Origin: a virus
Lineage: Duplodnaviria > Heunggongvirae > Uroviricota > Caudoviricetes
Virus record (IMG/VR): IMGVR_UViG_2737471861_000023
Direction: 5' to 3' (one strand)
DNA: 19,938 nucleotides
Shown here: piece after piece, positions 1 to 7,560 of the stretch
How positions within the stretch are numbered: the stretch's first letter is position 1
Layout: each line of letters starts with the position of its first letter
Translations under genes and position numbers: made by a program
Notes under the pieces: model-generated
What the model saw: only the letters and a program-made list of their open reading frames with translations
The model's database searches: none
What the model was told of the DNA's origin: nothing

Positions 1-411
1 ATGGCTCAGGTTGCCCTTTTTAAAGAAATATTTGATCAAGTGCGGAAAGATTTAAACTGTGACCGATTTTACTCTGAACTAAAACGTCACAATGTCTCAC
101 ATTACATTTACTATTTAGCCACAGGTAATATTCACGTTGTATTGAAAAATGATAACGCAGTGTTAATAAAAGGACTTGAGGAGGTTGTGAATGTTAAATT
201 TCGCAGAGACACGCGACTTATAGAAACTTACTCTCATAAGTTGAAATCAAGAGAAATCACATTTCATGAATACAGGGAAAATCTGGCTAAGGCTGGAGTT
301 TTCCGATGGGTTACAAATGTCCATGAACACAAAAGGTATTACTATACCTTTGACAACTCATTATTGTTTACCGAAAGCATTCAGAACACGACACAATTTT
401 TTCCACGCTAA
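1..411 (+). CDS. DUF1398-family prophage protein (YdfO/YbcV-like), 136 aa
   Basis: ORF 1..411 with ATG at window position 1; size and sequence recalled as resembling the Qin/DLP12 YdfO/YbcV family; sits next to bor as in those prophages. Confidence 0.55.
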
Positions 412-635
412 ACCATATCGCCCGGTTTAATCCCCCTCACTATCCGGCACTCCCACACAGGAGTTACCAGTCGGTACTGAGGACATAGTTAATCCGGGAA
501 TACAATGAAAATACAGCACATCTGGCATACTTTAATAAACATTAAAAATATGAGATTTCAACTCATTGTTTAGGTTTTGTTTAAATTTCTACAAATACGA
601 TTCAACAACCTTAAAAACACAACGGGAATAACACT

Positions 636-929
636 ATGAAAAAAACGCTACTCACTTTCACGCTGGCCCTGCTTATCTCTGGATGTGCTCAACAGACGTT
701 TACTGTTGAAAACCAACCGACAACAGTAACACCGAAGGAAACCATCACTCATCATTTCTTCGTTTCTGGAATTGGTCAGAAGAAAACTGTCGATGCAGCC
801 AAAATTTGTGGTGGCGCAGAAAAAGTTGTTAAGACTGAAACCCAGCAAACATTCGTAAATGGATTGCTCGGTTTTATCACTTTCGGCATTTATACTCCGC
901 TGGAAGCTCGGGTATATTGCTCACAATAA
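636..929 (+). CDS. bor: Bor outer-membrane lipoprotein (serum resistance), 97 aa
   Basis: Translation MKKTLLTFTLALLISGC...EARVYCSQ is nearly identical to phage lambda Bor as I recall it; lipobox LISGC; same length. Confidence 0.9.
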   Translation: MKKTLLTFTLALLISGCAQQTFTVENQPTTVTPKETITHHFFVSGIGQKKTVDAAKICGGAEKVVKTETQQTFVNGLLGFITFGIYTPLEARVYCSQ

Positions 930-936
930 TATCATA

Positions 937-960
937 AGTTGCCCATCTCGATGGGCAACT
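937..960 (+). terminator. Perfect 10-bp stem hairpin (AGTTGCCCAT-ctcg-ATGGGCAACT) just after the bor stop; no U-tract
   Basis: Inverted repeat read directly from sequence; lack of a T-run makes an intrinsic-terminator role uncertain. Confidence 0.3.
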
Positions 961-1246
961 CTATCTGCACTTGATGCGCAAATAACAACCTCCAAAAGAA
1001 AAATAGCAAAAGCAGACCGTGTCACATAAAGACGTGCAGTTACTTTCTTTTCTATTCCTTTCATAACGGACGGCTTTAAAAGAAGATTTATACGATCTGC
1101 CGAGGATTTTTCTCTGTACTCACTGATTCATATTCTCCTCTTTGTTTGGTATAAAAACCGAACTCTTTCTCCAGTCGTTTTTCTTGTTCGGTAAGTCTAA
1201 TAACAAGCTAACCGCAGGTTGGATTTACTGGCCTCATTAATGCCAA

Positions 1247-1792
1247 CTACACCACCACGCGCTCTTTCATCCAGCCATACACGAACGATTCATTAGCCTC
1301 ACGTTTTTCTGCCAGTTCAAGGTAGCGATCTCCCTGCGTACAGTTTAGCGCTGTCAGAATCACCAACTCACCATCCCTGCCACGTTTTGACAAATAGGCG
1401 CGTAACGCATTAATGGTACGTGGGCCGATACAACCATCTGCATCAATGTCCGGATACAACTCTCCTTTCTGGTTAAATACATTAAGCCAGCGCTGAAGCA
1501 TTCTGGATGCCACTGACGGCCCCATGTTTACGCCGGTATCACACAATTCAGCAGCGATCTCCGGAGACAGGCTCGCAACCTTGTGAAAACGTGGCCCGTA
1601 CCAGTAGTCCGCTTCAAGAATTTCGAGGGCCTGCCCACGCGTCAGGTCACGAATATCCCCCTGATAACCGTGTGCACGGGCAACTTTTCCAGTAATGCCC
1701 CATTTAGTCGGACCACCTTTATCATCAGGGTGGTTGACGTAGCCGCCCTCTTTGCCAAGAACAGCATCAAAAATTTCATCTTTCGACTTCAT
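1247..1792 (-). CDS. Phage endolysin, GH108-type N-terminal domain with peptidoglycan-binding C-terminal domain, 181 aa
   Basis: Start taken at internal ATG (MKSKDEIFDAVLGKEGGYVNHPDDKGGPTKWGIT...), the N-terminus recalled for GH108 lysozymes; the GTG-extended track ORF (to 1840) overlaps the upstream gene and is rejected. Confidence 0.8.
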   Translation of the reverse strand: MKSKDEIFDAVLGKEGGYVNHPDDKGGPTKWGITGKVARAHGYQGDIRDLTRGQALEILEADYWYGPRFHKVASLSPEIAAELCDTGVNMGPSVASRMLQRWLNVFNQKGELYPDIDADGCIGPRTINALRAYLSKRGRDGELVILTALNCTQGDRYLELAEKREANESFVYGWMKERVVV

Positions 1793-1793
1793 C

Positions 1794-2072
1794 TCAGCGC
1801 CTTCGTAATACAAAGATTTTTGAAACGTTCCCACGAGCACGAACCACCAGCACGCAGAACAGCAGGTTAAAAAACACTTCCAGCCAGCCCGTTGCTAACG
1901 GGCGACCACACAGATAGCTGAGGGGCGCAAAGGCATACAGCAGCATCAGCAACCAGGCCAGCCATGACATCAGCGGTTTATGTCTGGAATCACGACGACG
2001 ATAAAAAAAGAGCGTCAGCACGATAACCGTGCATAACGCCACATTCAGCAATCCGGGAAGGTTACTTAACAT
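1794..2072 (-). CDS. Small hydrophobic membrane protein inside the lysis cassette, 92 aa (function unknown; possible lysis accessory)
   Basis: ATG at 2072 preceded by GGAGGAGG Shine-Dalgarno; overlaps the holin stop by 11 nt and ends 1 nt before the endolysin ATG (translational coupling); hydrophobic segments. Confidence 0.5.
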   Translation of the reverse strand: MLSNLPGLLNVALCTVIVLTLFFYRRRDSRHKPLMSWLAWLLMLLYAFAPLSYLCGRPLATGWLEVFFNLLFCVLVVRARGNVSKIFVLRRR

Positions 2073-2454
2073 TGCCGCCTCCTCCACCCCGCAGGCGGGA
2101 GAACAGGCCGGACACCAGCGATGCAATATCCTGCTGGTGGATGAACGAGAGAATCTTCACCGACACCACCGCCACCAGCACCGCACACAGTGCATCCGCC
2201 GATGTACCGTCATAACCTGTTTTTGATGCAATCCAGGCTGACAGCACATGCGCACCCAGCACGCCAACGATAAACGACACCAGAAAATGCGCTGCCACAC
2301 GCCAGGCAGATAGTGCCTGCGGCATTGTGGCCACAAACAGCGCCCCGGCAAATGCGCCAAACACAATCCCGAAATCCGTTCCGGTAAACAGCCCGAATAC
2401 CGTCGCCCCGCCGAGCGCCGCAGCCGTGCCGGAACCGGATAAGGGTTCAGACAT
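2062..2454 (-). CDS. Putative holin, 130 aa, multi-TMD, Gly/Ala-rich
   Basis: ATG at 2454 with AGGAGA SD; three hydrophobic segments; position immediately upstream of endolysin; family not identified. Confidence 0.6.
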   Translation of the reverse strand: MSEPLSGSGTAAALGGATVFGLFTGTDFGIVFGAFAGALFVATMPQALSAWRVAAHFLVSFIVGVLGAHVLSAWIASKTGYDGTSADALCAVLVAVVSVKILSFIHQQDIASLVSGLFSRLRGGGGGNVK

Positions 2455-2470
2455 ACTTTTTCTCCTGTAA

Positions 2471-2500
2471 ATAAAAAAGGGCCACTGTCGGCCCGTAAAA
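2471..2500 (-). terminator. Intrinsic terminator (GGGCC-gacagt-GGCCC then T6 on the minus strand) directly abutting the holin SD; tR'-like position
   Basis: Hairpin 2479..2494 with A-run 2473..2478 on plus (U-tract on minus), read from sequence. Confidence 0.55.
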
Positions 2501-2584
2501 AAACAACACCCCGTCAAAGGCACCCGCAGATACCTTTTGTGTGGTGTTATCTGATGTGATGTACGCCGGACGTGGCGCGGATAT

Positions 2585-2608
2585 AAAAAAGGCCCGCCGC
2601 AGCGAGCC
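2585..2608 (-). terminator. Intrinsic terminator downstream of the AraC-family gene (7-bp GC stem with one G-U pair, then T6 on minus)
   Basis: Minus-strand sequence GGCTCGC-tgc-GCGGGCC followed by TTTTTT, read from sequence. Confidence 0.55.
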
Positions 2609-2633
2609 TGTTTTCAATGAGTGCAAAATTCAA

Positions 2634-3377
2634 TTATTCTTGAGTAACACTTAAACTCATCTCATTGAATGCAGCCATCCTGTAACCTGCCGGTGTAACA
2701 CCAAAATAACTCCTGAATACGCTGATAAAATAAGATGTAAAATTATAGCCACACTGAGCAGCGATTCTGTTGATGGCGCAACGAGATTGATTCAACAGCA
2801 TTGCTGCCATTCTCATTCTCTCTGTAAGCAACAACTCACTGAAACAGGTGCCTTCTTCTTTCAGTCTTTTTTTTAACAAACTTTCACTGATACATAACCG
2901 CGAAGACACATCTCTCAGAGTCCAGTTTGCTGCAATGTCCGTACGAAACAATGCACTAAGCCTGTCACTAATATTGCCAATACACGCGGTCAGAAACGAC
3001 GAAAACATTTTCTCTGATGAGAAAAACGCCAGACACGAAAAGGAAAGCATTTCCGCTAAATTGTCCGTATGAATCTTTTCCTCACAAAGATAATCAATCA
3101 GGATGCCCATCAATTCTGCCTTGGGAAAACTCACGCAAAGATATCGTGGTATTTGCCGGACTAAAACTACATCCTGTTTTTCGTCTCCACACAACAGGTA
3201 ACGGATAATTGTCGATTCACTGAGACTTATTCGCCGAAAACATTCCGAAAAGGGCAATAACGATCCAGCTCCCCCCCTGACAAGAAGTGCACTACCACTT
3301 TCCAGAGAGAGCTCTTTTCCTTCAAAGAGCACAACAAACGGGGAATGAACAAAAACAACAGAACAAGCTTCATTCAT
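2634..3377 (-). CDS. AraC/XylS-family transcriptional regulator, 247 aa (AppY/EnvY/PatE-like prophage regulator)
   Basis: C-terminal double HTH signature (...LLKKRLKEEGTCFSELLLTERMRMAAMLLNQSRCAINRIAAQCGYNFTSYFISVFRSYFGVTPAGY); start set at MNEACSVVF by analogy to AppY (MDYVCSVVF) as recalled. Confidence 0.85.
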   Translation of the reverse strand: MNEACSVVFVHSPFVVLFEGKELSLESGSALLVRGGAGSLLPFSECFRRISLSESTIIRYLLCGDEKQDVVLVRQIPRYLCVSFPKAELMGILIDYLCEEKIHTDNLAEMLSFSCLAFFSSEKMFSSFLTACIGNISDRLSALFRTDIAANWTLRDVSSRLCISESLLKKRLKEEGTCFSELLLTERMRMAAMLLNQSRCAINRIAAQCGYNFTSYFISVFRSYFGVTPAGYRMAAFNEMSLSVTQE

Positions 3378-3497
3378 ATCAATTGCCCTGACATTACTGG
3401 TCACAAGATAAGTATATATCGATTTACAAAAATACAAGCCGAAAGACCAGTATTCGCAACCACCAGCGCGTTTAACGTCCTGTACCGTTTTTCAGGC

Positions 3498-3524
3498 ATA
3501 AAAAACCCGCTCAGTGGCGGGTTT
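3498..3524 (-). terminator. Intrinsic terminator downstream of the ORF6N gene (CCCGC-loop-GCGGG then T6 on minus)
   Basis: Hairpin 3506..3521 with A-run 3500..3505 on plus strand, read from sequence. Confidence 0.5.
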
Positions 3525-3599
3525 AAGCTGTTTGGCGTAGTAACCACTCTTAACAGGATATTCAACTTTTTACGATCGTAAAGCGTTCGGGGAAAATTT

Positions 3600-4088
3600 T
3601 TAAAACCGTTCCAGAGTGCATACCATCGCATCGGCGGGTAGTTTTTCCGTGAAGTCGACCTGACCGTGTTTATCGAAGTGGATCAGTAATGCGCATCCAT
3701 CATTTTGGGTTGGGGTGTTTTGTGCTGCTGGTGGTTGTTTTTGGCTGAAATAACAGTCTTCCAGTTTTTCGAACACTTCCCACGCCTGATCGGTTTCCAG
3801 CATTTTGGCGTGACGGGCTGCTCCGCGTTCTGTCCAGAGGATGAGGTGCTTTGTACGCGGTGCAACTAAGTTACTTTGAGTAACCTTGTTCTTAAATTCC
3901 CGCAACTCAGCCCCTTCCAATTTGAAGTAGTGTTTCCCACAAACAAAACGCTCGGCATTGCGTGTATAGTTCACTTTGATGTTATTAGTTTCGGTGCCAT
4001 AAAGTTGTGCCAAAAGCTCGGTAGTAATGACAGGGATTTGGTTATGGGTGATCGGGGAAAGAGTTTCAACTGAGATTTGAATAGCCAT
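3600..4088 (-). CDS. ORF6N-domain protein, 162 aa (antirepressor-like N-terminal DNA-binding domain; function unknown)
   Basis: ATG at 4088 with AAGGA SD; N-terminal region fits the ORF6N pattern as recalled (FV..KHYF.LEG.EL..F ... LWTERGA.RHAKML..D.AWEVFE.LE..YF). Confidence 0.65.
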   Translation of the reverse strand: MAIQISVETLSPITHNQIPVITTELLAQLYGTETNNIKVNYTRNAERFVCGKHYFKLEGAELREFKNKVTQSNLVAPRTKHLILWTERGAARHAKMLETDQAWEVFEKLEDCYFSQKQPPAAQNTPTQNDGCALLIHFDKHGQVDFTEKLPADAMVCTLERF

Positions 4089-4269
4089 AGGATGATCCTT
4101 TTTCTATGTGAATCATCACCACTGCTGACGCCAATCAGTATGGTGGTGAACTGTGCAGGGTTGGCGTAACCGGGAAAAAGGAACCGGCGCGGATCGCTCC
4201 GCCCCCACACAGCCCACCATTGAGATGTGACAGTGCAAACGACAATAAAAAAGACGCTGGCGCGTGAGG

Positions 4270-4299
4270 AATATAGCCCCGGACAATGTGTCTGGTCAA
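4270..4299 (-). promoter_or_regulatory. Candidate late promoter (pR'-like) just downstream of Q: -35 TTGACC, 18-nt spacer, -10 TATATT on the minus strand
   Basis: Hexamers read from sequence (plus ggtcaa 4294..4299, aatata 4270..4275); followed by a short GC hairpin plus T6 at about 4245..4262. Confidence 0.35.
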
Positions 4300-4303
4300 G
4301 CTC

Positions 4304-4690
4304 CTACATGATTCGTTCTACGTATCTGTCCATCTCCAGTCGGATATCAAGCATCATCAACATGCCATCAATAACCCCTTCCGCTTTCTGCAGGCGCTTG
4401 CCAATACAGGTATCCGAACACCCATGCTTTCGTGCCAACCCCATAAAAGTCATTCCACCTACGTAATAATCCACCAACAAATCGTGCAAATCCTGATTTT
4501 TCTTGTTCAACCGGGCCATACAGCCACAAATTATCATTGCATCATCATCAGAACACTGAGGGCGTGATTTCACTTTCGGCGGGATTAATCCTTTAAAACC
4601 AGCAGCGATTGACGCCCATGACACATCTTCGTGATTGTTCGCAGCCCATGCTCCCCACCGCTCCATAACCTGCTGAATATCACGCACCAT
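4304..4690 (-). CDS. Late-gene antitermination protein Q (phage-82/QuuD-type), 128 aa
   Basis: Translation [34 protein letters not shown]... closely resembles DLP12 QuuD as recalled; start codon overlaps the rusA 3' end. Confidence 0.8.
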
Positions 4691-5051
4691 CGTTATCACC
4701 TGTAATTTCGTAAATCTTCACGCCCAACCGCCCACCAGGAACAGGCAGTCCGCGCACAATATTGATTTCATCAAACTGCTCGTCGTCTATAAGTAGTCCG
4801 GCATGCGTCAGCGCATCCAGTGGTGCCTTCAGGATATTGTCCAGGTCGCGGCGGCGCTTATCCGGTGGCTCTGCAATAATTTTTATTGCCAGCCTTCCGG
4901 ACAGGTTTAATTTCAGTCGCTGCTGGCGAACAATAAGCGCCACATCACGGCGATAACGCTCACCGGCTTTTGATACAAAATATGTGCTGCCACGACGTCG
5001 CCAGTAGGTGTTCACCGTTGGCGGGTAAGGCAAAACAAATTCTATCCCCAT
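4680..5051 (-). CDS. rusA: Holliday-junction resolvase RusA, 123 aa
   Basis: RusA-family signature ([12 protein letters not shown]...[29 protein letters not shown]) recognised by recall; conserved position upstream of Q. Confidence 0.85.
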
Positions 5052-5063
5052 CAGTAACCTCTT

Positions 5064-6113
5064 TTATCCGAGTACGCCTGTTGCAAAGGCGTGATCAAGA
5101 AAACGAAAAATTAAATCAACCTGAGAACCATGCTTTTCTTCGAATGCCTGCGGATCCGCATGAAGCTCGTTGTGATGCTCCCGACACAGCGGCAACGTAA
5201 AAATATCGTGGGCCTTTGTTCCCATCCCTCCCTGACCGTGACCAATCAGGTGATGGGGATCGTCGGCTGGCTTACCACAACACGCACACGGCTGTGTCTT
5301 CACCCAGCGTGTGTATTTCTCGTTAACCCAGCGGCGACGTTTAGGTCGTTTCATGAAAGATTCCGGAGACTCAGGATCAACGGCAATGCTGACCACCGTC
5401 TTTTCCTGTGGTGGGTTCTGTTGCTGGTGGGCGTGAGGCAACAGCGCAAAATTTTTTGTGCGCTGCTTCAGTATGCTGGTGGCTGTCTGTTCTCCCGGTA
5501 TGATGTCGCTCTCGCGGTAAAGCGAGCGGATTTTCTCCGCCGGTAATCCCAGTGAGCGGCGTAATACAGCCTCCGGTAGTGCGTCCGCTACCTGATTGCA
5601 GACCGCCCACCAGGATAATTCAGCCAGAGATAATTCACGCTCCTGCGTACCGCTTATTGCGTGACCGATGACGTCAATCATCCATGCTGACAGGTTTTGA
5701 TGAGCAAGTTGCTCGAGTGATTCGGATGTCTGGTCACGCAGCTGGTTGTCGCAGTGCCAGCACAACACCATTGCGCCGGTACCATAACGGTGAATGACGG
5801 TTTCACTGTGGTGATAATCGCCGTGTGGCCACTGGCAGGATTTAACATGGCGCAGTAACCAGTCAGACAATGCGCCAGCGCCACCAGCAGCACGAATCAC
5901 TCGTTCGTCGCTGAAAAATGGCAGTAATGATTTATCCTCCGCCAGCGGCTGGCGAACGGCAGGAACGACCCCGGACGGCAGATTACGCATGCTTTTCGGT
6001 TCCGGCTCCACCAGTACCCGGGTATTGTGGAATACCGGCATGGATTCACGGCCCGGCTTAACGATCACCAGCCCGAGTTCCGGTACCAGAACAGGTCGAA
6101 GTAATACCCGCAC
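5064..6113 (-). CDS. DUF968-family prophage protein (YdfU-like), 349 aa, GTG start
   Basis: Length and N-terminus (MRVLLRPVLVPELG...) match my recollection of Qin YdfU; Cys/His-rich C-terminal motif (CACCGKPADDPHHL...CREHHNELH); GGAGG SD 5 nt before the GTG. Confidence 0.7.
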   Translation of the reverse strand: MRVLLRPVLVPELGLVIVKPGRESMPVFHNTRVLVEPEPKSMRNLPSGVVPAVRQPLAEDKSLLPFFSDERVIRAAGGAGALSDWLLRHVKSCQWPHGDYHHSETVIHRYGTGAMVLCWHCDNQLRDQTSESLEQLAHQNLSAWMIDVIGHAISGTQERELSLAELSWWAVCNQVADALPEAVLRRSLGLPAEKIRSLYRESDIIPGEQTATSILKQRTKNFALLPHAHQQQNPPQEKTVVSIAVDPESPESFMKRPKRRRWVNEKYTRWVKTQPCACCGKPADDPHHLIGHGQGGMGTKAHDIFTLPLCREHHNELHADPQAFEEKHGSQVDLIFRFLDHAFATGVLG

Positions 6114-6688: not shown

Positions 6689-7081
6689 CTACTGCCCTGT
6701 TTTAACGAAATTTTTAAAGGAAACAACTGCCTGATAGGGGTTTGGTTGACAGCCAAACATATTATCGCAAAAAGGCTTGATGAAAATTCTTGAGGATCCA
6801 TCTTCATTTGGCATTTTACTCACTTGATAAGCGAGGAATGGACTATTTGGAGAGGGATTATAAGTGGAAATTAGCGTGTCTGTCGCCGTTTGAATTTTCC
6901 ATGAGGAATTATTAGCCAACCAGAATTGCGCTCGTTTCCAATAAAAGTCACATTGCTTTTCATCATTACATGTTAGTGGCTTCATTGCTTCTGCTTTCAA
7001 CGCTGGATCGACCTTTGCTGCACACCCTCCCAACATTACTGTTGCAATCATTACACCTGCGACTAAAACAAGTTTCTTCAT
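6689..7081 (-). CDS. Predicted lipoprotein, 130 aa, function unknown (moron)
   Basis: Signal peptide with lipobox MLGGC; AT-rich by eye; own downstream terminator. Confidence 0.7.
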   Translation of the reverse strand: MKKLVLVAGVMIATVMLGGCAAKVDPALKAEAMKPLTCNDEKQCDFYWKRAQFWLANNSSWKIQTATDTLISTYNPSPNSPFLAYQVSKMPNEDGSSRIFIKPFCDNMFGCQPNPYQAVVSFKNFVKTGQ

Positions 7082-7224: not shown

Positions 7225-7380
7225 TTACTCCTCAGGTTCGTAAGCTGTGAAGACAGCGACCTCCGTCTGGCCGGTTCGGATTCGTACCTCGCAGAGGTCT
7301 TTCCTCGTTACCAGTGCCGTCACAATGACGGTTAAACAGATGACGATCAGGGCGATTAACATCGCCTTTTGCTGCTTCAT
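7225..7380 (-). CDS. hokD: Hok-family type I toxin, 51 aa (HokD/RelF-like)
   Basis: Translation MKQQKAMLIALIVICLTVIVTALVTRKDLCEVRIRTGQTEVAVFTAYEPEE matches HokD/RelF as recalled. Confidence 0.9.
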   Translation of the reverse strand: MKQQKAMLIALIVICLTVIVTALVTRKDLCEVRIRTGQTEVAVFTAYEPEE

Positions 7381-7560
7381 AGCCTGCTTCTCCTTGCCTT
7401 TCGGCACGTAAGAGGCTAACCTAGATTTGCCGTTCATAGATTGAGCCTCAGATTAATGTTAAGCGTCTTGCAGGACGCGTAATGTTAACTGGGGCTTTTC
7501 TCTATCTGCCTTTGGTGTTCATGCCTGAGGCAGATAGCCTCAATCACCCGCAGCAATTCT
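7381..7560 (-). promoter_or_regulatory. hok mRNA leader: in-frame 19-codon upstream extension (mok-like, ATG at 7437 with GAGG SD), 9-bp inverted repeat 7502..7510/7529..7537; Sok antisense not confidently placed
   Basis: ORF track 7225..7437 is in frame with hok; inverted repeat read from sequence. Confidence 0.4.

Follow-up and report, generated by a model that had tools for sequence, protein, structure and literature searches.

The stretch of viral DNA analysed here and called the window below (IMG/VR record IMGVR_UViG_2737471861_000023; 19,938 nucleotides, nt) carries on its minus strand the part of a lambdoid E. coli prophage that encodes late regulation and lysis, and our subject is the interval between its gene for the late antiterminator Q and its holin genes. 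Read in the direction of transcription, this interval holds a sigma-70 promoter-like site, a c4-type antisense RNA, a gene for an ORF6N-domain protein resembling phage antirepressors, a homologue of the late promoter pR' of the Shiga toxin (Stx) phages 933W and Sp5, an intrinsic terminator (T1), a gene for an AraC/XylS-type regulator (the AraC gene) and two further terminators (T2 and T3), with coordinates as given in Table 1. The interval is a mosaic of three modules, and every component is of a kind already described; what is new here is a distinct and uncharacterised lineage of regulator together with the particular mosaic, including a private 58-bp deletion. An earlier note, made from the sequence alone, had reported the Q gene, the first promoter-like site, the ORF6N and AraC genes and the three terminators, all of which lie on the minus strand where it had put them; the c4 RNA, the 58-bp deletion, the truncation of the ORF6N gene and the second promoter (3582..3555) are features beyond that note.

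Genome counts here and below refer to a set of 5426 complete E. coli genomes. Positions 1-4750 of the window are 99.9-100% identical to prophages in 12-13 complete genomes, mainly of cattle or farm origin; one example of such a near-identical prophage is that of strain VG35A2, integrated near potCD/cobB. The VG35A2 prophage also carries several pseudogenes and an insertion sequence, IS3, adjoining the terminase genes; an IS3 lies just past the point that corresponds to the left end of the window.

The promoter behind Q and the c4-antirepressor cassette

The earlier note, by its comparison with pR'-tR' of lambda, implied that the promoter-like site at 4299..4270 is a lambda-type pR', and the position of the site, starting 4 nt past the Q stop codon, invites this reading. 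The site is the sole pass of a consensus scan of positions 1500-5500, for which shuffled sequences average 4.1 passes; since the count is not above chance, the case for this promoter rests on conservation. Its -35 element (in the form TTGACS), its 18-bp spacer and its -10 element TATATT recur before IsrK-c4-ant in the nin regions of Stx phages that have no Q upstream, and the IsrK/c4-antirepressor module as a whole is found in 830 of the genomes and adjoins a Q of this type in only 41. Because promoter, leader, terminator and c4 thus precede ant without Q, we consider that the site is probably the intrinsic promoter of the module (PisrK, or P51-like as in P1) and not a lambda-type pR'. IsrK was also considered as a general partner of PF06530 Q genes and rejected, as neither isrK nor c4 lies behind quuD, the Q genes of Sp4 and ev203 or the Q gene of locus L014.

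The leader that should follow this promoter is incomplete in the window. In alignment with VG35A2, 58 bp are missing just 3' of the -10 element, between two copies of ACGCGCCAGC of which one remains. With them have gone the IsrK small RNA (sRNA), the a1/b1 sites and half of the IsrK terminator, on its 5' side, and what is left of this terminator has lost its hairpin fold. No match to IsrK (Rfam RF01394), in its complete form a 77-nt RNA that directly follows the promoter and has two hairpins at its 5' side and an intrinsic terminator, is found in the window; related loci score 55-79 bits, and the intact leader in L001 gives 79.4 bits for isrK (gathering score 50) and 52.2 bits for c4-a1b1. The additional 58 bp are kept in 13 of the 13 complete genomes that cover the stretch and the deletion is unique to the window, with its junction found in none of the 5426 complete genomes and in no metagenome contig. 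Because the 10-bp flanking repeats fit such an event, the 58-bp loss may be a slippage deletion private to the strain; an assembly error is less likely.

The c4 RNA downstream is full length in the window, as it is in the intact relatives, and here matches model positions 1-87 of 87 with a score well over the gathering score of 45. For its loops, base-pairing at the ORF6N ribosome-binding site is predicted: the a' loop, UCCUUUUUC at 4182..4174, faces a2 (GAAAAAGGA, 4104..4096), the Shine-Dalgarno region of the ORF6N gene, 8 nt ahead of its AUG at 4088, and b', ACGCCAA at 4167..4161, faces b2, UUGGCGU at 4134..4128. RNAduplex gives 9 bp and -11.0 kcal/mol for a'/a2, a value equalled by 2 of 500 shuffles, and 7 bp and -10.3 kcal/mol for b'/b2, equalled by 14 of 500. 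The variable bases of b' covary with those of b1 and b2 in three lineages (CG/CG, GA/UC and UU/AA), which suggests that several heteroimmune c4 specificities exist among E. coli prophages. In the heteroimmune c4 systems of P1 and P7, as far as the account in PMC8201110 relays them (Citron & Schuster 1990, cited there), specificity differs by such covarying bases. At least three versions of b' and its target were seen across the window and loci L010, L012 and L013, namely CGCCAA/UUGGCG, GACCAA/UUGGUC and UUCCAA/UUGGAA.

Phage homologues of the ORF6N protein are annotated Ant, among them the ant product of a P1-like phage. The gene in the window has suffered a 3' deletion of about 67 bp, by which 24 C-terminal residues are gone relative to the intact 186-aa homologue (L010 4176-4244); the truncation, at 3600-3610, is common to all 13 near-identical prophages, the identical gene is flagged by NCBI PGAP as a pseudogene without its C-terminus, and in another strain the gene is split by an IS66 element. 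The cassette has accordingly decayed twice here, through the 58-bp loss and through the missing 3' end of the ORF6N gene. The earlier note had counted this gene as the first of two regulator-type morons; because its promoter would be intrinsic to the IsrK/c4-antirepressor cassette, it is better read, on its homologies, as the Ant-type antirepressor gene of a c4-controlled phage anti-immunity cassette, truncated in this prophage, than as a host-directed moron. No CTG-N10-CAG motif of a LexA box was seen upstream of the ORF6N gene on inspection by eye, and no isrJ homologue was found downstream of it at E <= 1.

Two known systems bear on this cassette. The gene order is like that of antQ-isrK-orf45(STnc1160)-anrP-isrJ in prophage Gifsy-1 of Salmonella (Hershko-Shalev et al. 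2016, PMC4825925), with which it shares the succession of a Q-like antiterminator, a promoter, IsrK with an intrinsic terminator, a structured RNA and an antirepressor gene, and the intact E. coli relatives exceed the Rfam isrK threshold. In Gifsy-1, anrP is transcribed from PisrK, its translation is turned on by the short IsrK RNA, and IsrK mutations raise translation in cis yet abolish activation in trans (PMC4825925). The window differs from Gifsy-1 in that IsrK is deleted, the antirepressor is truncated and isrJ has no detected counterpart, and in that c4 directly abuts the ORF6N ribosome-binding site, with no orf45-like upstream open reading frame (ORF) identified. The second system is immI of P1 and P7 (c4, icd, ant; Citron & Schuster 1990, cited in PMC8201110). 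To the extent that the citing paper describes it, immI shares with our locus a c4 RNA, here a full-length hit, short complementary sites both upstream of c4 (a1/b1, in the relatives of the window) and downstream of it (a2/b2), a downstream site pair that overlaps the ribosome-binding site and, behind it, an Ant homologue. Against the same description, the locus has no icd gene, lies in a lambdoid and not a plasmid prophage, and follows Q, its place in Stx phages being the nin region.

The late promoter homologue and the terminators

The Q protein, recognised by its PF06530 domain, matches the Q21 structure PDB 6P18 (E 2.6e-7) and is 80-83% identical to Q proteins of Stx phages, with 80% identity to that of 933W/VT2-Sakai, and by these similarities belongs to the Q21/Q933 family. 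Its end is peculiar: the last ~19 codons of the 933W/VT2-Sakai Q gene are replaced by two (IM, 4304-4312), and this swap falls at the joint with the antirepressor cassette (comparison locus L018 1880-1938). In Sakai Sp5 the final codons of Q overlap the late promoter. We also observe that the Q proteins of DLP12, Sp4 and ev203 (81-83% identical) end at differing points and are followed by unrelated DNA.

The Sp5 transcript from pR', StxS_L, has a length of 258 nt, and RNase E cleaves it between GU and AUU at +173 (Sy et al. 2020, PMC7547250). We placed its start on the Sp5 sequence by setting the 3' end of StxS_L at the second terminator, whereupon the start becomes the A of AGTGGTTAC, 22 nt past the Q stop, the only GTATT of the region falls exactly at +173, and the promoter reads TTTACG-16-TATCAT. 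Between the published Sp5 coordinates and NC_002695.2 there is an offset of 142 nt. Positions 3590..3498 of the window align with the Sp5 promoter, early transcribed region and first hairpin, and the parts follow in the same order: TTTACG at 3582..3577, a 16-bp spacer, TATCCT at 3560..3555, AGTGGTTAC from 3548, and then T1. On this alignment the site at 3582..3555 is a sequence homologue of the mapped late promoter pR' of 933W/Sp5, parted from the body of Q by the antirepressor cassette, ~720 bp in length. The consensus scan missed it because it has only 8 of 12 matches, below the threshold. There is a lesson for annotation in this, namely that a strong promoter directly behind Q need not be pR', and that the true pR' homologue can be too weak for a consensus scan.

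T1, missed by the initial terminator scan and found by folding, occupies +25..+49 of the predicted pR'-type transcript, as does its homologue in Sp5 (L019, NC_002695.2 1266369-1266393). Because the Sp5 hairpin lies inside the 258-nt StxS_L, it must be read through there to a detectable extent. T1-like hairpins stand before the AraC gene behind four different Q/promoter types (L011, L014, L015 and L016), and the ~96-bp unit around T1 is present in ~236 further genomes without the AraC gene. We therefore see T1 as the likely promoter-proximal terminator of a 933W-type pR' unit, and not as a terminator of the ORF6N gene, and also as what seems to be a mosaic joint of many prophages.

The two remaining terminators have a different affiliation. 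T2, T3 and the 85-nt spacer between them precede the same PF16931 holin gene in more than 300 genomes that have no AraC gene, where the cargo upstream of T2 is a methyltransferase gene with tRNA-Gly, or tRNA-Ile/Thr/Gly, and the stems of T2 and T3 are conserved across prophages, with changes confined to the loops. By this distribution T2 and T3 are parts of the lysis-cassette leader, with T2 as its first element. The T-run of T3 ends ~10 nt before the Shine-Dalgarno sequence of the holin gene, which bears out the placing of a further terminator there by the earlier note. The stretch between T2 and T3 (2495-2589) is highly conserved and matches no promoter and no known RNA family. The ORF6N gene and the AraC gene were each said to have a terminator of their own; a hairpin does stand behind each gene, but both hairpins are shared with contexts that lack these genes.

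The AraC-type regulator

The AraC protein has a double helix-turn-helix (HTH) domain at residues 158-233 (PF12833, E 1.2e-13; PF00165, E 3.2e-13) and aligns from residue 2 to 230 with positions 2-228 of the 253 of the NCBIfam YdeO model (147 bits, E 7.9e-43). It was considered as a YdeO orthologue and rejected, its score being set against an equivalog cut-off of 348 bits, and it is a paralogue-level relative. In BLASTP comparisons it is 36% identical to GadW and to YdeO over 230-242 aa, 30% to AppY, 39% to the probable PatE (ECs_0287), 40% to PsrA over its C-terminal 158 residues, and 39-40% to GadX and EnvY over the DNA-binding domain. PsrA and PatE, of enterohaemorrhagic E. coli (EHEC) O157:H7, were compared through the Sakai equivalents ECs_1087 and ECs_0287 (for EDL933 Z1789 and Z0321); ECs_0287 is the probable PatE in that it is the sole AraC-type gene in Sp1/OI-8. 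Motifs of the clade are shared as well, both N-terminally (M..(V/A)CSV(I/V)F) and in the HTH region, where SESLLKK.LK.E and TSYFI..FR..FG are near-identical. The homology comparison with AppY, EnvY and PatE that had been proposed thus places the protein, to judge by these alignments, in the YdeO/GadW/GadX/AppY/PsrA/PatE clade as a separate lineage: members of its own cluster are 75-100% identical, and the next relatives are at 42% or below.

Orthologues of the gene at the DNA level occur in 65 of the complete genomes, and those with 88-100% identity always lie between some Q-type gene, of which four types are represented, and the PF16931 holin cassette. All alleles examined keep an unbroken reading frame of 247 aa, the ratio of nonsynonymous to synonymous substitution rates (dN/dS) is 0.30-0.36 at dS of 0.22 or below, and the gene is under purifying selection. 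With a GC content of 41-43% it is poorer in GC than its flanks (50-57%).

Because the T1 unit and the T2-T3 unit both occur without the AraC gene, this gene is, on comparative grounds, cargo inserted between a pR'-T1 unit and the leader of the lysis cassette; in L010, L020, L021 and Sp5 the same two units flank other cargo or none. The description of the gene as a moron with its own promoter and terminator holds in part. The gene is an extra one, absent from homologous junctions; as to a promoter, none was found by consensus scan in 3378-3497, and hexamer pairs picked out by eye in the same stretch were poor, differed between alleles and were rejected; and it has no terminator of its own, since T1 and T2 belong to the neighbouring modules.

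The comparison with 933W/Sp5, in which the order is Q, pR', StxS, tR', tRNAs with stx2AB and then the lysis genes (Sy et al. 2020, PMC7547250), is instructive in both directions. Q is 80% identical, homology extends over promoter, early transcribed region and first hairpin, and cargo precedes the lysis genes in both; here, the antirepressor cassette parts Q from the pR' homologue, there is neither the 200-nt StxS body nor its terminator, the AraC gene stands directly behind the first hairpin, and the lysis cassette is unrelated. By position the AraC gene fills the slot that holds the tRNAs and stx2AB in Sp5 and psrA in Sp4.

PsrA/PsrB, PatE, YdeO, GadW, GadX and AppY are of the same AraC/XylS subfamily in full-length alignment, and PsrA/PsrB and PatE resemble our regulator also in being prophage-borne and AT-rich. 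The earlier note had placed such regulators generally in the position seen here, and this is so for some: PsrA (ECs_1087) in Sakai Sp4 lies between Q and the lysis genes, and in thirteen induced lambdoid phages of the ev203 type a 37% identical AraC homologue stands directly upstream of the holin gene. It is not so for others, since AppY lies beyond the tail-fibre remnants of DLP12, unlike the gene here, and the probable PatE is encoded at the end of prophage Sp1, while phage mEp332 has a close homologue of it behind tail genes. PsrA/B, PatE, AppY, YdeO and GadW regulate host genes and are known from the literature as activators of acid-resistance or H-NS-silenced promoters; among them, AppY acts from DLP12, and PsrA and PatE from cryptic prophages of EHEC, all of these as defective as the prophage here. 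As to the targets, we infer by analogy that the AraC protein most likely activates H-NS-silenced host acid-resistance promoters of the GAD/hde type.

Table 1. Positions of the features of the late-regulatory and lysis region, in the order of minus-strand transcription
Feature	Position	Strand	Basis or remark
DUF968 gene	5064-6113	minus	
RusA gene	4680-5051	minus	
Q late antiterminator gene	4304-4690	minus	PF06530, E 2.3e-52
Sigma-70 promoter-like site, TTGACC-18-TATATT	4299..4270	minus	10/12 consensus matches
Junction of the 58-bp deletion	4256..4265	minus	lone remaining copy of the 10-bp repeat ACGCGCCAGC
c4-type antisense RNA	4139-4224	minus	Rfam RF01695, 74.0 bits
c4 target sites a2/b2 in the ORF6N 5' untranslated region	4096..4134	minus	predicted pairing, RNAduplex
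ORF6N-domain antirepressor-like gene (Ant/AnrP type), 162 aa	3600-4088	minus	PF10543, E 1.2e-21
Homologue of 933W/Sp5 pR', TTTACG-16-TATCCT	3582..3555	minus	alignment with Sp5; predicted start A3548
T1 intrinsic terminator	3524..3500	minus	-13.9 kcal/mol, z -2.6
AraC/XylS-type regulator gene, 247 aa	2634-3377	minus	HTH_18, E 1.2e-13
T2 intrinsic terminator, strong	2585..2609	minus	-17.8 kcal/mol, z -4.1, for 2609..2590
T3 intrinsic terminator	2473..2494	minus	-10.8 kcal/mol, z -1.7, for 2494..2479
Holin gene, PF16931	2062-2454	minus	Pfam
3TM holin gene	1794-2072	minus	Pfam
GH108 endolysin gene	1247-1792	minus	Pfam

Possible wiring and competing explanations

Taken as a whole, we read the interval as an antirepressor cassette, then a pR'-T1 unit, then the AraC gene as cargo before the T2-T3 leader of the lysis genes, and we hold this reading to be moderately probable. 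Within it, the analysis shows the anatomy, the homologies, the RNA families and the purifying selection on the AraC gene, and the activity of the promoters, the efficiency of the terminators, the site of Q action and the AraC targets are inferred. Q would load onto polymerase at the pR'-type promoter (3582..3555), and the modified polymerase would pass all three terminators and go on to transcribe the holin and endolysin genes. Because three serial terminators stand between the likely late promoter and the holin gene, expression of the lysis genes should need antiterminated polymerase; the claim of the earlier note to this effect stands, its ground being the homology shared with Q and pR' of the Stx phages. 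By analogy with Sp5 we presume that pR' is constitutive in the lysogen; transcripts leaking past T1 would cover the AraC gene and end at T2, with Q raising expression of the regulator on induction. Such leakage from the pR' homologue through T1 is the most economical route by which the AraC gene might be expressed in the lysogen.

Several observations weigh against this reading. The promoter at 4299..4270 abuts Q as a pR' would, and might be Q-responsive too. The pR' homologue has only 8 of 12 consensus matches, with a -10 of TATCCT against TATCAT in Sp5, the sequence 5' of its -35 differs from that in Sp5 so that Q may not load there, and the C-terminal tail of Q itself is replaced. For the AraC gene, the failure of the scan to find a consensus promoter in front of it counts on the same side, and with an identity of only 30-40% to any tested regulator the targets proposed for its product are a guess.

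Other explanations of the same anatomy were weighed. It might be argued that 4299..4270 is the sole Q-responsive pR', with the ORF6N and AraC genes as independent morons, each with its own terminator, in one late operon. The site does begin 4 nt behind the Q stop, the usual place of a pR', and is the only pass of the consensus scan between Q and the holin gene; the junction of Q and promoter is retained in 41 genomes, down to 82% identity, Gifsy-1 has a like adjacency of antQ and isrK, and in the intact relatives the promoter would give a short terminated RNA, as pR'-tR' does. We nevertheless regard this as unlikely, because ~790 genomes, as well as nin regions of Stx phages with no Q upstream, have this promoter, leader and terminator in front of ant, and because a homologue of the mapped Sp5 pR' is present further downstream; related Q proteins (81-83% identical) are followed by unrelated sequences, and T1, T2 and T3 are common to contexts without the ORF6N or the AraC gene.

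That the AraC reading frame has stayed intact under the selection described above, that the gene has moved among prophages with four different Q types, and that AppY, PsrA and PatE are active regulators in equally defective prophages together make it quite improbable that we are looking at the inert remains of a defective prophage, with the AraC gene silent (H-NS-bound or promoterless), the antirepressor dead and no effect on the host. Such decay would suit the two deletions in the ORF6N cassette and the IS66 split in another strain, the IS3 element and pseudogenes of the VG35A2 prophage, and an AraC gene that has no upstream consensus promoter and is AT-rich like H-NS-silenced genes. A role of the AraC protein in the service of the phage, for example in tuning the PF16931 holin cassette or the timing of lysis, would be in keeping with the constant place of its orthologues (88-100%), which for every Q type stand immediately before the same holin cassette. 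We think it very improbable all the same: the same holin cassette, behind its T2-T3 leader, does its work in more than 300 genomes that have no AraC gene, distant homologues (37-40%) adjoin unrelated holins of the lambda S type or sit at prophage ends, and every characterised member of the clade regulates host genes.

Returning to the reading of the AraC gene as cargo of a pR'-T1 unit, one may speculate further that the regulator is wired to an always-on pR' in the manner of StxS: transcripts of the lysogen would leak through a weak T1, cover the AraC gene and end at T2, the basal activity of the promoter would set host programmes of acid resistance or H-NS counter-silencing, and Q made on full or partial induction would boost the regulator. 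We give this a low probability; if true, the wiring would couple the lysis-lysogeny state directly to a host stress regulon through a new GAD-type lineage. Prophage regulators of the YdeO/GadW-like kind (PsrA/B, PatE, AppY) rewire the acid resistance, type III secretion and respiration of their E. coli hosts, and the lineage described here, which has no characterised member, is carried by ~1% of the complete genomes, with many cattle or pig isolates among its listed carriers. Because it lies in the slot that holds the Shiga toxin genes in Stx phages, the AraC gene is a reasonable candidate for a host-fitness factor, with expression tied to the phage late promoter. Our analysis refines the locus and leaves the current view of phage regulation unchanged.

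Some further features of the window lie outside the interval. The region at 7375-7549 (minus strand) is a hok/sok type I toxin-antitoxin module, with an Rfam match to sok of 101.6 bits, and according to the annotation of related prophages this sok adjoins a hokD-like gene. Between it and the DUF968 region, in an island of 39-40% GC, lies a 130-aa lipoprotein-like ORF (6689-7081, minus strand) with a signal peptide that ends in LGGC, possibly a further moron. Past the lysis cassette, positions 1-929 of the plus strand carry a DUF1398 (YbcV-like) gene and a Bor lipoprotein gene, as in DLP12.

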